This document shows positions 1,785 through 6,395 of a stretch of DNA of 54,013 nt, in pieces. The stretch lies in the IMG/VR virus record IMGVR_UViG_2778261162_000003; one strand, written 5' to 3'. Numbering within the stretch: the first letter of the stretch is position 1; every line of letters begins with the position of its first letter. The DNA comes from a virus (taxonomy: Duplodnaviria; Heunggongvirae; Uroviricota; Caudoviricetes). The notes beneath the pieces are model-generated. The model searched no databases. It was not told the origin of the DNA and saw nothing but the letters and a program-made list of their open reading frames with translations. A program made the translations under genes and the position numbers.

Positions 1785-2566
1785 GCTGCCACCTTCTGCT
1801 CAGTGGCTTTCTGTTTCAGGAATCCAAGAGCTTTCACTGCTTCGGCCTGTGTCAGTTCTGACGATGCGCGAATGTCGCGGCGAAATATCTGGGAACAGAG
1901 CGGCAATAAGTCGTCATCCCATGTTTTATCCAGGGCGATCAGCAGAGTGTTAATCTCCTGCATGGTTTCATCGTTAACCGGAGTGATGTCGCGTTCTGGC
2001 TGACGTTCTGCAGTGTATGCAGTATTTTCGACAATGCGCTCGGCTTCATCCTTGTCATAGATACCAGCAAATCCGAAGGCCAGACGGGCACACTGAATCA
2101 TGGCTTTATGCCGTAACATCCGTTTGGGATGCGACTGCCACGGCCCCGTGATTTCTCTGCCTTCGCGGGTTTTGAATGGTTCGCGGCGGCATTCATCCAT
2201 CCATTCGGTAACGCAGATCGGATGATTACGGTCCTTGCGGTAAATCCGGCATGTACAGGATTCATTGTCCTGCTCAAAGTCCATGCCATCAAACTGCTGG
2301 TTTTCATTGATGATGCGGGACCAGCCATCAACGCCCACCACCGGAACAATGCCGTTCTGCTTATCAGGGAAGGCGTAAATTTCTTTCGTCCACGGATTAA
2401 GGCCGTACTGGTTGGCGACGATCAGCAATGCGATGAACTGCGCATCGCTGGCATCACCTTTAAATGCCGTCTGGCGAAGAGTGGTGATCAGTTCCTGTGG
2501 GTCGACAGAATCCATGCCGACACGTTCAGCCAGCTTCCCTGCCAGCGTTGCGAGTGCTGTACTCAT
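1781..2566 (-). CDS. bet: Lambda-type single-strand annealing protein Bet (Red beta)
   Basis: 261 aa, near-identical to recalled lambda Bet; overlaps exo start by 4 nt as in lambda. Confidence 0.95.
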
Positions 2567-2571
2567 CCGTT

Positions 2572-2868
2572 TTATACCTCTGAATCAATATCAACCTGGT
2601 GGTGAGCAATGGTTTCAACCATGTACCGGATGTGTTCTGCCATGCGCTCCTGAAACTCAACATCGTCATCAAACGCACGGGTAATGGCTTTTTTGCTGGC
2701 CCCGTGGCGTTGCAAATGATCGATGCATAGCGATTCAAACAGGTGCTGGGGCAGGCCTTTTTCAATGTCGTCTGCCAGTTCTGCCTCTTTCTCTTCACGG
2801 GCGATCTGCTGGTAGTAACGCGCCCAGCTCTGAGCCTCAAGACGATCCTGAATGTAATAAGCGTTCAT
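2572..2868 (-). CDS. gam: Gam, host RecBCD inhibitor (98-aa short form)
   Basis: [27 protein letters not shown]... matches lambda Gam C-terminal 98 aa; an in-frame stop 19 codons upstream excludes the long form. Confidence 0.9.
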
Positions 2869-2943
2869 GGCTGAACTCCTGAAAATGGCTGTGAAAATAT
2901 CGCCCGCGAAATGCCAGGCTGATTAGGAAAACAGGAAAGGGGA

Positions 2944-3234
2944 TTAGCGATTCAGGCCGTTACCGCGTCCGTCGAGAAAAACTTCCACGAGCAAATCACG
3001 GGTATAAGTGCGCTCGATGCCGCGATGCAGATAAAGCCGTCCGCGTAAATTAGCTGATGCAGTCCAGGTACCATCTTTGTGTTTGACCAGCATTCCTGGC
3101 ATGACCGCGCCGCGATTAACGGTCTGCGTTCCGTAATGTTGATGAACCATAAAAACTCCTGCCCGTAAGCTGGGCTGCTGAACATATAGAGACTTCTGCG
3201 CGTATTCAGGCGGTGGATGGCCGCCGGTTGTCAT
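2944..3234 (-). CDS. Hypothetical protein in the kil/cIII position of the pL operon
   Basis: 96-aa ORF between the pL region and gam; no recognised similarity; competing overlapping ORF in another frame. Confidence 0.3.
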
Positions 3235-3424
3235 AACTAAGCCGCCTCGTTGAAGCGACTAAGGTATGAAATGTTGAGTTGATTTCAGCTGGTCACACCG
3301 ACGTTCACGCGTCCGTTTCACCCCTCGCACTCCCCGAAGCCTGCTGAAATTCAAACTGCGGATCTAAGCGGTCATCGCAACGGTGAATCAGGTGGTTGCC
3401 GTATCGTTGTGTTGTTGCGATGAA

Positions 3425-3505
3425 CTTATTTAAAACTATAGTTGTTTTACCGTCAACAACAAAAGTTGTTTTATTGGTTGTTTTAGATATAACTGGTTGT
3501 ATTTA
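3425..3505 (-). promoter_or_regulatory. Putative pL promoter with OL operator repeats
   Basis: Minus-strand -35 TTGACG (3451-3456) and -10 TTAAAT (3428-3433) with 17-bp spacer; AACAAC/GTTGTT half-sites including palindrome AACAACAAAAGTTGTT (3455-3470); same architecture as the pR region. Confidence 0.45.
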
Positions 3506-3745
3506 GGATGGATTTATTTTGTGACTTGAATCGCATAGCGATAACTGAAGCGAGGTTATGGTGGTTTTTTTAACGGTGTGTGTGATGAGGGGAGGGCAAA
3601 AGAAAACCCGGCACGGTGACCGGGATTCTTACGCCGTTAGGTAAAGATATTATTGCGGTGGCTTAATATTACTACCTAGAGCAAAGATAGGAATTAGTTC
3701 TTTACTGAATGAGCACAATGCCCAGTTGATAATTTTTAATTGGTA

Positions 3746-4435
3746 CTACCCATGCTTCCTATATGTCTGCGGCATGCTCCCAATAACCTTACCGAAGATG
3801 AACACCCGGTTCATCTCGTCTTTCTCGATCGGGTCCCACGGTGAGTAGCTTTTGTTATCAGAGATGACCAGCAGCTTATCCTTCATCATTTGCAGGCGCT
3901 TTACATGGGCTGTGTCGTCGTACAGAAACGCATAGATACCATCACCGTCGAAAGATTTAACTGTGATATCAACGAACAGCAGATCACCTGGTTCGATCGT
4001 TCCTGACATGCTGTCACCACGCACGTTAATGATGCGGATATTTTCCGCCTTCCTACCATCGAACATATGACGAGCATCGTCAAACGAGTACTCAACCGAG
4101 CGTAGAACTTCTACAAACTCACGGTTGATGACTCCCGGCCCAGCACTGACTTCTATATCAAGAACGTCAATCTTGAAGTATTTGGAATGGCTGACAGTTG
4201 ATTGTATTGGTTGCACTGTACTGTCTGACATATTTCCAACGCCAGAAGATAACCATTCTGCGCGCACACCCAAAGCGTTCGCGATCTCCACGATTTTAGT
4301 TGTTTGATTAGCTTTCCCTGTTTCGATTTTCTGAATAGCAGCTTGGCTAACCCCGACCAAATCCCCAAGCGCCTTTTGTGTAAGGCCTCGCGCTAATCTG
4401 GCTTCTTTAAGTCTTTCTGAGAGTGTTGTTTTCAT
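3746..4435 (-). CDS. cI: Prophage repressor CI (N-terminal HTH plus C-terminal LexA/S24-type self-cleavage domain)
   Basis: HTH LTQKALGDLVGVSQAAIQKIETGK; C-terminal domain with catalytic Ser (RGDSMSGT) and Lys (HVKRL); start taken at MKTTLSERL since the upstream ATG lies inside the operator region; no Shine-Dalgarno, consistent with a leaderless pRM transcript. Confidence 0.85.
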   Translation of the reverse strand: MKTTLSERLKEARLARGLTQKALGDLVGVSQAAIQKIETGKANQTTKIVEIANALGVRAEWLSSGVGNMSDSTVQPIQSTVSHSKYFKIDVLDIEVSAGPGVINREFVEVLRSVEYSFDDARHMFDGRKAENIRIINVRGDSMSGTIEPGDLLFVDITVKSFDGDGIYAFLYDDTAHVKRLQMMKDKLLVISDNKSYSPWDPIEKDEMNRVFIFGKVIGSMPQTYRKHG

Positions 4436-4539
4436 AGTCCAAATGTACAACCAAGGTTTTATTTCATCAAACGAAAATGGTTGTTGACTAAAAACAACCA
4501 TAGTTTTAATCTTGATTCAAATTAACCACGGAGGTTGTT
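4436..4539. promoter_or_regulatory. Divergent pRM/pR control region with OR operators
   Basis: Plus-strand pR: -35 TTGACT (4484-4489), 17-bp spacer, -10 TAATCT (4507-4512), RBS GGAGG before cro ATG; palindrome ATGGTTGTT-N7-AACAACCAT (4477-4501) overlapping the -35. Confidence 0.55.
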
Positions 4540-4770
4540 ATGAACCCAGCTATCAAAACAGCGATCAATATCGTTGGTTCACAAAAGAAACTGGGCGCTG
4601 CTTGCGAAGTTTCACAGCAGGCCGTCTATAAGTGGCTTCACAACAAAGCAAAGGTATCCCCTGAACATGTCGGCAGCATTGTTACGGCTACTGGTGGAGT
4701 AGTGAAGGCATACCAGATTCGCCCGGATCTTCCGAAGTTGTTTCCACACACCGAAAAGAACGCAGCTTAA
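4540..4770 (+). CDS. cro: Cro-like HTH regulator
   Basis: 76 aa, divergent from cI across an operator region; HTH QKKLGAACEVSQQAVYKW. Confidence 0.7.
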   Translation: MNPAIKTAINIVGSQKKLGAACEVSQQAVYKWLHNKAKVSPEHVGSIVTATGGVVKAYQIRPDLPKLFPHTEKNAA

Positions 4771-4839
4771 ATTTCCATTTCACGCTCTTTAACAATAAGC
4801 AATCAACTTAACAGTCAATTCAAACTAAAGGAGTCAATT

Positions 4840-5379
4840 ATGCAACCACTTACATACCAACAGACTAGCGGATTTAGCCCGACTGCGGTGATAAATCGTT
4901 CTCAAACAAAACAGGTGCCAGGCCACGAAAAAATCCGTGATGCCGTCCGCGCCTGGTCGGCTGAAGATAATCAGGATGTCGTTGCCGCACTCATTGTGAA
5001 TGAGTATCGAGCACAGGGCGGCGGCACTATCGATTTTTCTGATGATGTCAGTCGTGCACGCCAGAAGCTGTTCCGCTTTCTCGATAACAAATTCGATTCT
5101 GAAAAATACCGAAATAACGTGCGTGAACTGACTCCAGCAATTCTGGCAGTACTACCGCTGAAATATCGCGGCCACCTGGTTGAGCAGGATAGCTTCATGG
5201 CTCGGCTGGCTGAAATGGAAAAGGAACTCAGTGAGGCAAAACAGGCTGTCATTCTCAACGCACCACGCCACCAGAAACTGAAGGAAATTAGTGAAGGTAT
5301 TGTGTCGATGTTTCGTGTGGACCCAGATCTGGCTGGTCCATTGATGGCGATGGTTACTACCATGCTGGGGGCGATATGA
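4840..5379 (+). CDS. CII-like regulatory protein (possibly phage 186 CII/CP76 family)
   Basis: 179-aa ORF in the cII position between cro and O; family assignment from recollection only. Confidence 0.4.
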   Translation: MQPLTYQQTSGFSPTAVINRSQTKQVPGHEKIRDAVRAWSAEDNQDVVAALIVNEYRAQGGGTIDFSDDVSRARQKLFRFLDNKFDSEKYRNNVRELTPAILAVLPLKYRGHLVEQDSFMARLAEMEKELSEAKQAVILNAPRHQKLKEISEGIVSMFRVDPDLAGPLMAMVTTMLGAI

Positions 5380-5465
5380 CAGGTTCAGAAATGGCGAAAG
5401 CCGGTCTGCTGGAACAGAACCGACTTTCAGGTGCAAATCGTAACACACTCATTGCGGGAGGAATT

Positions 5466-6395
5466 ATGGCAAACACTGCTGAGATATTCAATTTTCCAGT
5501 GCCGGATGCGGCACAAAAGGAGCCGCGCGTGGCAGATCTCGATGATGGTTATACGCGCATTGCAAATGAGTTGCTGGAAGCTGTGATGCTGGCCGGATTA
5601 ACACAGCACCAGCTTCTGGTCTTCCTAGCTGTCATGCGCAAAACATATGGCTTTAATAAAAAACTGGATTGGGTGAGCAACGAGCAACTGTCCGAATTGA
5701 CCGGGATATTGCCGCACAAGTGTTCTGCTGCAAAAAGTGTTCTGGTAAAGCGTGGGATTTTGATTCAGAGCGGGCGGAATATCGGTATTAATAATGTGGT
5801 CAGTGAATGGTCAACATTACCCGAATCAGGTAAGAAAAATAAAGTTTACCTGAAAGAGGTAAATTTACCTGAATCAGGTAAGAAAAGTTTACCCAAATCA
5901 GGTAAAGGCGTTTACCCGAATCAGGTAAACACAAAAGACAAACTAACAAAAGACAATATAAAACCTTTTTCGTCCGAGAATTCTGGCGAATCCTCTGACC
6001 AACCAGAAAACGATCTTCCTGTGGTGAAACCAGATGCTGCAATTCAGAGCGGCAGCAAGTGGGGGACAGCAGAAGACCTGACCGCCGCAGAGTGGATGTT
6101 TGACATGGTGAAGACCATCGCGCCATCAGCCAGAAAACCGAATTTTGCAGGGTGGGCTAACGATATCCGCCTGATGCGTGAACGTGACGGACGTAACCAC
6201 CGCGACATGTGTGTGCTGTTCCGCTGGGCATGCCAGGACAACTTCTGGTCCGGTAACGTGCTAAGTCCGGCCAAACTCCGCGACAAGTGGACCCAACTCG
6301 AAATCAACCGTAACAAGCAACAGGCAGGCGTGACAGCTAGCAAACCAAAACTCGACCTGACAAACACAGACTGGATTTACGGGGTGGATCTATGA
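5466..6395 (+). CDS. O: Replication initiator O
   Basis: C-terminal about 130 aa near-identical to lambda O (SENSGESSDQPENDL...TNTDWIYGVDL); divergent N-terminal iteron-binding domain; start at MANTAEIF preceded by GGAGG; ori iterons inside the gene. Confidence 0.85.
   Translation: MANTAEIFNFPVPDAAQKEPRVADLDDGYTRIANELLEAVMLAGLTQHQLLVFLAVMRKTYGFNKKLDWVSNEQLSELTGILPHKCSAAKSVLVKRGILIQSGRNIGINNVVSEWSTLPESGKKNKVYLKEVNLPESGKKSLPKSGKGVYPNQVNTKDKLTKDNIKPFSSENSGESSDQPENDLPVVKPDAAIQSGSKWGTAEDLTAAEWMFDMVKTIAPSARKPNFAGWANDIRLMRERDGRNHRDMCVLFRWACQDNFWSGNVLSPAKLRDKWTQLEINRNKQQAGVTASKPKLDLTNTDWIYGVDL
5817..5965 (+). repeat. Replication origin: four roughly 18-bp iterons plus an AT-rich segment inside O
   Basis: Direct repeats TTTACC(C/T)(G/A)AATCAGGTAA at 5817-5833, 5864-5882, 5888-5906, 5911-5929, followed by AT-rich sequence; lambda ori-like organisation. 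Confidence 0.8.

Follow-up and report, generated by a model that had tools for sequence, protein, structure and literature searches.

Two textbook routes are known by which lambdoid phages run their early operons, the N/nut system of lambda and the put RNA of HK022, a two-stem RNA of ~70 nucleotides that acts in cis on RNA polymerase by way of the beta-prime zinc-binding domain. In nin-type derivatives of lambda, deletion of a terminator makes N dispensable for the genes that lie behind it. Here, we analyzed the early-left control region of IMG/VR virus record IMGVR_UViG_2778261162_000003, the whole 54,013 nucleotides (nt; 54 kb) of which are referred to as the window. The sequence, the list of open reading frames (ORFs), and matches to Pfam and PHROGs show that the window carries a lambdoid prophage. 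Its positions 2869-3745 separate the repressor gene cI from gam and contain the leftward promoter pL, a leader, and the gene kil. The region is an ordinary yet uncharacterized N-less variant of the lambdoid early-left control region, and literature searches on GevA/GevT, KilS, phi80 tL1, and DLP12 antitermination retrieved no paper describing the leader. On balance, we lean towards the reading that the prophage belongs to a DLP12-type lineage without N, in which kil, gam, bet, and exo need neither N nor put since a terminator of the tL1 type is absent.

Over positions 2869-3745, the window is 99% identical to the phages Turner and PhiR34_1 and 92-96% identical to phages of the "Lambda_4A7" type (Bievrevirus) and to PhiR phages. 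The order cI-(cargo)-pL-leader-kil-gam-bet-exo was constant in all relatives inspected, and N was annotated in none of them. The leader was present in 2231 of 5426 complete Escherichia coli genomes (~41%), O157:H7 included, nearly always as a single copy, and never overlapped an annotated feature in those 2231 genomes. An O157:H7 relative carries ren, emrE, and ybcK in its nin region, a set that we take to be present also in the DLP12 remnant of K-12; because of this match the family is read as intact relatives of DLP12.

Absence of N, nutL, and put

An earlier note on this DNA, made from the sequence alone, had claimed that no N-like gene lies between cI and gam. This holds: when lambda N, HK022 Nun, and P22-type gp24 were used as tblastn queries, the best match in the 54 kb had an E-value of 0.49, and Pfam and PHROGs gave nothing N-like among the ORFs of 2869-3745. 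A short arginine-rich ORF, the feature by which the note would have recognized an N gene, does exist in the interval and was judged non-coding (Table 1). As a gene it was rejected for having no visible Shine-Dalgarno sequence and no Pfam or PHROGs family match. In 53 of 57 distinct leader variants, CAG stands in place of its TAG stop, and in strain 800 as well as two IMG/VR variants the frame is lost through independent indels. Equally rejected was the long frame running from 3354 into kil, considered as an N-like extension of Kil. It is interrupted by the TAG in the window and by independent indels in two IMG/VR variants, Turner, and strain 800. Its variable sites lack three-base periodicity (14:8:15 by codon position over 3354-3151), which counts against the arginine-rich ORF as well. 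In bet, variation instead affects 58 of 117 fourfold-degenerate sites and just 32 of 518 sites at codon positions one and two.

The 96-amino acid (aa) ORF between pL and gam to which the note had assigned no function (2944-3234 in its long form) turned out to encode a KilR-family cell-division inhibitor (phrog_294, E = 1.6e-38). Residues 1-59 of the 68-aa Kil align with residues 1-61 of Rac KilR, from residue 1 of both, with 36% identity (BLASTP, E = 9e-13). The start of kil is the ATG at 3150, and the 207-bp gene that results is also the one annotated by PGAP in relatives. Between 3234 and 3150, a single nucleotide is deleted in Turner, and therefore the 28 codons upstream of 3150 are dispensable. 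Because the real start of kil is at 3150, the leader, previously put at ~190 nt, extends from ~3421 to 3151 and is ~270 nt long. Annotation of kil is inconsistent among the records: that of Turner (L002, 3084-3365) is a 93-aa frameshift artefact, that of PhiR47_2 (L001, 3076-3462) is a 128-aa "Kil" beginning at the TTG of the arginine-rich frame, and 4A7 and RefSeq have the 68-aa form.

A nut site composed of boxA and boxB was found in neither early transcript, the left one being without boxA and the right one having a boxA without a hairpin. The note had seen no boxA; this is correct for the leftward strand of 2869-3745, with up to three mismatches allowed. Outside these coordinates, a perfect 12-nt consensus boxA follows cro. 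This copy is the only one without mismatches in the window, and no boxB-type hairpin was seen by eye in the 45 nt after it. It is present in relatives of the same immunity type and absent after cro in 4A7, and in the FDAARGOS_946 type just ~30 nt separate cro from ydaT. The cro-boxA-ydaT junction was found in 1515 of the 5426 E. coli genomes. The sequence CGCTCTTTAACA, followed by AT, agrees with what we take to be the core of the rrn boxA, and in this the site resembles rrn-type boxA/Nus antitermination, from which it differs in that it follows cro in a phage right operon and occurs in one immunity type of the family only. It may be the relic of a nutR or else a site at which Nus factors still work.

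On the left, leader nt 78-132 could be aligned over 55 columns with nt 75-127 of the lambda N leader, just downstream of the nutL boxB, with a score that was reached by 11 of 1000 shuffles. This similarity is suggestive only. The relic-like boxA and the lambda-like leader stretch are hints that would fit descent from an N-dependent ancestor. In comparison with lambda and phi80, the window thus has the same gene order from pL to kil-gam, a consensus boxA in the nutR position, and a weakly lambda-like leader stretch, while it differs by having no N gene, nutL boxA, boxB hairpin, or tL1A. As a further candidate for a nut-like signal, the 13-mer AAUCAACU(C/U)AACA, found at 3272-3284 on the minus strand and at 4801-4813 on the plus strand, was rejected, two of its positions being variable. 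The two copies match at 12 of 13 positions; the pR copy lies 6 nt past the boxA and has no counterpart behind cro in phages of 4A7-type immunity, a second reason for the rejection. The 13-mer is probably shared between the pL and pR leaders by chance. No convincing RfaH ops-like or boxB-like motif was seen by eye in the leader.

As the phage lacks N, some N-independent logic must apply, and to this extent the note was right; the two mechanisms it had offered, a put-like RNA and a DNA-level operator, both failed our tests. For the first of these, HK022 putL and putR were recovered from the genome, and their positions agree with the residues named in PMC9378689. A covariance model (11 pairs, 7 covarying) was built from 10 putL/putR sequences of HK022, HK639, CobraSix, phiEt88, UPF_BP1, and PDP110P2. 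The positive controls CobraSix and HK639 scored 93 and 82 bits, respectively, and putL of S9-5, which was outside the training set, scored 84 bits. In the whole window, searched with filters off, the best score was 8.9 bits (E = 1.7) and lay elsewhere in the phage. Neither the pL leader nor the pR leader gave a match in this unfiltered search at E up to 10, and the relatives of the family gave none either. In addition, blastn-short with putL and putR gave no match in the window, the conserved put stem II motif GGCGGG.UCAGG..GA.CGGCAAU was absent, and Rfam, searched with 2500-5500 (E up to 1), returned just a chance match to an internal ribosome entry site. A second, putR-like copy of the leader was not found near pR, where the best self-match was the 12-of-13 one at 4801-4813.

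There are likenesses to the put phages. Like HK022 and HK639, the window phage is lambdoid and without N, and, as with putL, its conserved non-coding RNA segment starts at or close to the 5' end of the pL transcript. To the eye, GAAACGGACGCGUGAACGUCGG and the 37-nt hairpin after it faintly recall put stems I and II. The window nevertheless contains neither the sequence nor the structure of put and no paired element after pR, and with every one of the above searches negative we consider it extremely unlikely that the leader is an HK022-type put antiterminator RNA.

The kil module and the missing terminator

The leader has a mosaic structure, with a 3' part (3151-3272) that is found as a module upstream of kil in other phages and a segment (3264-3421) that is specific to the family of the window. 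From UUUCAUACC (3264-3272; UCAUACC in the RNA) to the hairpin H-B, the module is common to phi80, HK225, HK639, CobraSix, ENT1, KO-TP1, and S9-5, and kil is annotated downstream of it in six of these seven phages, ENT1 being unannotated.

In all seven phages, a canonical hairpin with a U-run directly precedes the module. The devices identified upstream are N with nutL in phi80 and putL in HK639, CobraSix, and S9-5, three put phages that share both hairpins of the module (H-A and H-B) with the window. The terminator that put has to overcome in these phages, just upstream of the module, is absent in the window. Its family has neither device nor terminator, and the 3264-3421 segment stands there instead. 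When 2500-3424 (leader, kil, gam, and the end of bet) was scanned for terminators, just weak candidates of 5-6 bp were found, and in Turner the first strong leftward terminator is located past exo. On the rightward strand, no strong intrinsic terminator was found from pR to the Q gene. Silvania and Enterobacter prophages in which Kil comes first have pL leaders of ~80 nt and are likewise without N.

That device and terminator either occur together or are both missing is the main support for the terminator-loss reading. Under it, the early-left region would consist of pL/oL, a ~270-nt leader, and kil-gam-bet-exo, and polymerase starting from pL would meet no strong terminator until after exo, so that no antitermination would be required for these four genes. 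The logic is that of the nin-type lambda deletions, where removal of a terminator frees the downstream genes from N, with the differences that the lineage of the window is natural and very widespread and that the left operon is concerned. If the reading is true, the family is to nature what N-independent mutants are to the laboratory, and many of the lambdoid prophages that actually occur can do without N.

Several points weigh against this reading. HK225, ENT1, and KO-TP1 have the module and the terminator and no identifiable device. Rho-dependent terminators are invisible to sequence scans, and the module of phi80 lies just upstream of the annotated rho-dependent tL1B. The strong terminator in the Turner pL operon (AGGGAGCTACAGGCTCC then TTTTTTATT; L006, 4391-4409) is placed between the small ORFs that follow exo and the xis/int side, so that read-through or a separate promoter may still be required for full leftward expression. 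The family-specific segment has roughly a third of the nucleotide diversity of fourfold-degenerate sites, which argues for a function that terminator loss leaves unexplained. Lastly, the fold of a stem-loop at the 5' end of the transcript, described below, and the start site itself are predictions, and the 5' arm of this stem-loop is replaced in a third immunity type.

The kil-upstream module contains the hairpin H-A, an invariant AUG, and the hairpin H-B. H-A is a conserved structured RNA: in nine sequences from eight phage lineages, 97% of the alignment cells were paired and 7 of 11 pairs had changed on both sides. None of 500 shuffles reached this covariation score, and registers slid along the alignment paired at 32-54%. 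Since U-G pairs are conserved in H-A, it is the leftward RNA strand that folds. H-B is near-invariant even at positions that would be fourfold degenerate if translated. Eight of the nine sequences keep the frame that leads from the AUG into H-B, the exception being CobraSix, where it is shifted. Further downstream the peptide shows no conservation and its length varies; in the window it runs in frame into kil. The invariance of H-B and the shift in CobraSix indicate that the nucleotide sequence is constrained and not the peptide. In HK639, the H-B sequence with its U-run is annotated as a terminator, and CobraSix also has a U-run. In the window, H-B was rejected as an intrinsic terminator, because UGAAUACG follows the GGCGG/CCGCC stem in place of a U-run and the terminator scan did not list it. 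In phi80, the homologous sequence is flanked by two annotated terminators, tL1B and the rho-independent tL1A; the latter immediately follows N and is the terminator directly in front of the module. Travelling with kil in many phages, the H-A/H-B module probably tunes kil expression. This well-supported, uncharacterized RNA element occurs in phages with N, with put, and with neither, and a toxic cell-division inhibitor may be under its control.

A more specific role would be that of an attenuator that keeps the toxic kil and the genes following it silent under leaky transcription from pL. Rho would terminate in the untranslated leader unless the ORF starting at the invariant AUG (MTTGGHPPP) is translated; H-A would control the GAGG ribosome-binding site of this ORF, and its proline run would set the speed of the ribosome. 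The covarying H-A, with an invariant GAG 10-11 nt upstream of the AUG, would suit this mechanism, and the GG(H/Y)PP frame is found in eight of the nine sequences, S9-5 included, although it differs there by 3 nt in frame. The short ORF of KO-TP1 overlaps the gene that follows through an ATGA. The annotated rho-dependent terminator of phi80 is situated ~120 nt downstream of the module, and the first 40 nt of the leader of the window are C-rich and G-poor (14 C, 5 G).

A precedent is offered by Rac, where a homologous Kil gene, kilR, likewise toxic and behind a long non-coding leader, is reportedly silenced by Rho and NusG. A small RNA gene, kilS (L015, 5406-5503), is annotated on the same strand in the kilR leader, and the strong terminator at its end is ~175 nt away from kilR; it is therefore a precedent for a leader-derived RNA before a Kil gene, although the sequences are unrelated. 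The two leaders share one 9-mer and are otherwise dissimilar, nhmmer with the family-specific segment gave nothing significant in the Rac locus, and kilR, unlike kil, is not the first gene after a repressor-controlled promoter. Against the attenuator, the conservation pattern of H-B and CobraSix described above points to sequence, not peptide, and the length and stop of the ORF vary in every lineage, up to the in-frame run into kil in the window. The spacing of 10-11 nt between GAGG and AUG is long, and the middle of the leader is rich in G (20 in 40 nt), unlike a Rho-loading site. Taking these points together, we regard the attenuator as unlikely.

The family-specific segment and the predicted 5' stem-loop

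The position of pL given in the earlier note was borne out (TTGACG-17-TTAAAT, minus strand), as its hexamers align with TTGATA-17-TATTAT in relatives of the 4A7 type and with TTGACT-17-TATTGT in those of the FDAARGOS_946 type. A simple promoter scan did not list pL because its -10 is weak. The transcript is predicted to start at ~3421, seven bases past the -10, which is where homology among the immunity types picks up again as (A/G)UCGCAAC. The sole block in which the window diverges from the heteroimmune 4A7, strain 800, and FDAARGOS_946 is ~3421-3499, comprising the operators and the promoter hexamers, and this divergence parallels that of the N-terminal (DNA-binding) domains of cI.

A perfect 10-bp inverted repeat, TCATCGCAAC (3372-3381) and GTTGCGATGA (3414-3423) with 32 nt between the arms, is present as the note had reported. 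It had been said to end at the transcription start, whereas the start, if correctly placed, falls inside the promoter-proximal arm. By itself the repeat only marginally exceeds chance: perfect 10-bp repeats with a loop of 3-60 nt occurred in 4% of shuffles of the 877-nt region, and the whole window has 7 such loci versus 2.9 expected. When the first 67 nt of the transcript were folded, the free energy was -13.3 kcal/mol (z = -1.85), a value equalled or bettered by 12 of 200 shuffles. Among the 57 leader variants, changes in the repeat arms are mostly compatible with wobble pairing (C-G/U-G, A-U/G-U), three singleton variants break a pair, and there is no double compensatory change. Stem-loops at the 5' terminus are known to protect E. 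coli mRNAs from 5'-end-dependent decay. A 5'-terminal stem-loop of the pL transcript would most likely act on its stability or early folding.

The other use proposed for the repeat, as a DNA operator for cI, Cro, or another repressor, can be judged from its location. The repeat is palindrome-like and adjoins pL, and a CAACAAC within it resembles the operator half-site of the immunity type of the window. It is, however, transcribed, being located downstream of the -10 and the start site and outside the divergent ~3421-3499 block, and its arms are 32 nt apart versus 4 nt in the operators. Because it is kept in heteroimmune phages that have a different set of operators and different DNA-binding domains of cI, it is not an immunity-specific operator, and an operator function of any kind appears very improbable.

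The family-specific part of the leader has a nucleotide diversity of 0.025. In kil, gam, and bet, the corresponding values are 0.057-0.076 for fourfold-degenerate sites and 0.0035-0.0097 for the first two codon positions. Variable sites number 21 of 117 in the segment versus 85 of 191 fourfold-degenerate ones. Judged by these diversities, the segment is under purifying selection and not neutral, with a constraint no higher than that of nearby non-coding spacers (0.018 in the kil-gam spacer). When the pL regions of 23 further loci from phages and prophages were searched with the segment (nhmmer), nothing significant was obtained. The minus-strand RNA 3235-3425, which the note had proposed to fold, was as a whole no more stable than its shuffles (z = -0.35). 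According to RNAalifold, pairs in the 57 distinct leader variants had changed on one side only, in ways compatible with wobble pairing, and no pair was doubly compensated; the variants are too alike to prove a structure of the family-specific part. The Kil leaders of Citrobacter, Kluyvera, Enterobacter, Silvania, and Pseudocitrobacter are unrelated and thus unusable for the covariation of this leader, and one locus (L082), with cargo genes in place of the leader, was uninformative.

The ~150-nt segment, possibly with the 5' stem-loop, might also be a new cis-acting antiterminator or anti-Rho RNA, put-like in action and unrelated to put, which together with the H-A/H-B module would carry polymerase through a Rho-dependent region before kil and through the terminator after exo. 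The segment does occupy the exact nutL/putL position of the phages that share the kil module, it is kept in at least three immunity types from the transcription start onwards, and its reduced diversity would be accounted for. The strong terminator before the xis/int side would give it a target further down the operon, and the shared module is part of an annotated rho-dependent terminator region in phi80. It lacks a second copy or similar motif downstream of pR, unlike putL/putR, as well as any doubly compensated pair, a fold better than shuffles over 3235-3425, and a put or Rfam match. Moreover, its constraint does not exceed that of the kil-gam spacer, and other N-less Kil-first prophages manage with ~80-nt leaders. 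We therefore hold such an RNA to be quite improbable; if true, the constrained, active leader would be a third kind of early antitermination device, in the commonest lambdoid prophage family of E. coli.

Feature coordinates and neighboring sequences

The features of the region are listed in Table 1. Besides these, O- and P-like genes are encoded on the plus strand of the window.

Table 1. Genes, signals, and RNA elements in and around the early-left region of the window.
Feature	Position	Strand	Description
exo	1104-1784	minus	
bet	1781-2566	minus	
gam	2572-2868	minus	
kil	2944-3150	minus	KilR-family FtsZ/cell-division inhibitor, 68 aa; first gene of the pL operon; PHROGs, BLASTP, PGAP
Hairpin H-B	3209-3225	minus	GGCGG-CCAUCCA-CCGCC; near-invariant in nine sequences
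Invariant AUG	3232-3234	minus	Start of possible upstream ORF (MTTGGHPPP...); kept in nine of nine sequences
Hairpin H-A	3237-3263	minus	Core AGUCGCUUC-AAC-GAGGCGGCU (3240-3260); 3' arm with invariant GAG
Arginine-rich ORF	3259-3354	minus	31 aa, TTG start, MNFSRLRGVRGVKRTRERRCDQLKSTQHFIP; from ORF list; judged non-coding
Family-specific leader part	3264-3421	minus	~150 nt; relatives have nutL-N-tL1A or putL-genes-terminator here
Lambda-like stretch	3293-3346	minus	Weakly colinear with lambda N leader just downstream of nutL boxB; local alignment
Inverted repeat, predicted 5'-terminal stem-loop of pL transcript	3372-3423	minus	8-10 bp stem, C-rich 32-nt loop
pL promoter	3428-3456	minus	-35 TTGACG (3451-3456), 17-nt spacer, -10 TTAAAT (3428-3433)
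oL operator block	3431-3499		AACAAC-N4-GTTGTT-type repeats; direct repeat family; same motif at oR (4477-4501)
Intrinsic terminator of cI (pRM) transcript	3607-3624	minus	CCCGGTCACCGTGCCGGG then TTTTCTTTT; upstream of pL; kept in relatives
cI	3746-4435	minus	Repressor with helix-turn-helix and S24 peptidase domains; Pfam and PHROGs matches
cro	4540-4770	plus	YdaS-type
Consensus boxA	4783-4794	plus	CGCTCTTTAACA, perfect 12 nt; 13 nt past cro stop, nutR position
"CII" gene	4840-5379	plus	YdaT-type

Kil homologues with 84-87% identity were found in prophages of Citrobacter, Kluyvera, Silvania, and Enterobacter, in most of which the gene is the first after pL. They are preceded by a different conserved leader of ~175 nt or ~80 nt. 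Most of these leaders begin with a related CAUCG..., and so do the pL transcripts of HK639, CobraSix, and ENT1.

The kil-gam spacer (2869-2950) is ~93% identical to the lambda sequence right after the stop of lambda kil, and in many Shiga toxin (Stx) phages Kil is annotated across the match to this spacer. The presence of a lambda-like spacer behind kil of the window indicates that a kil of the KilR type has become linked to a kil-gam junction of the lambda type.

In relatives, the gap that separates pL from the end of cI, and that corresponds in position to lambda rex, is a hotspot for cargo: they carry there a SIR2-family gene, a HipA kinase with DUF3037, or an ASCH-domain gene with a partner annotated GevA/GevT. 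The gap of the window itself (3500-3745) holds no cargo, just the cI terminator. At the other end, the leftward operon of the window copy is apparently truncated before the xis/int side, and a few hundred bases past exo, at 12-530 on the plus strand, there is an ORF for a putative IstB-like ATPase (IS21-type helper), recognized by eye from its Walker motif.

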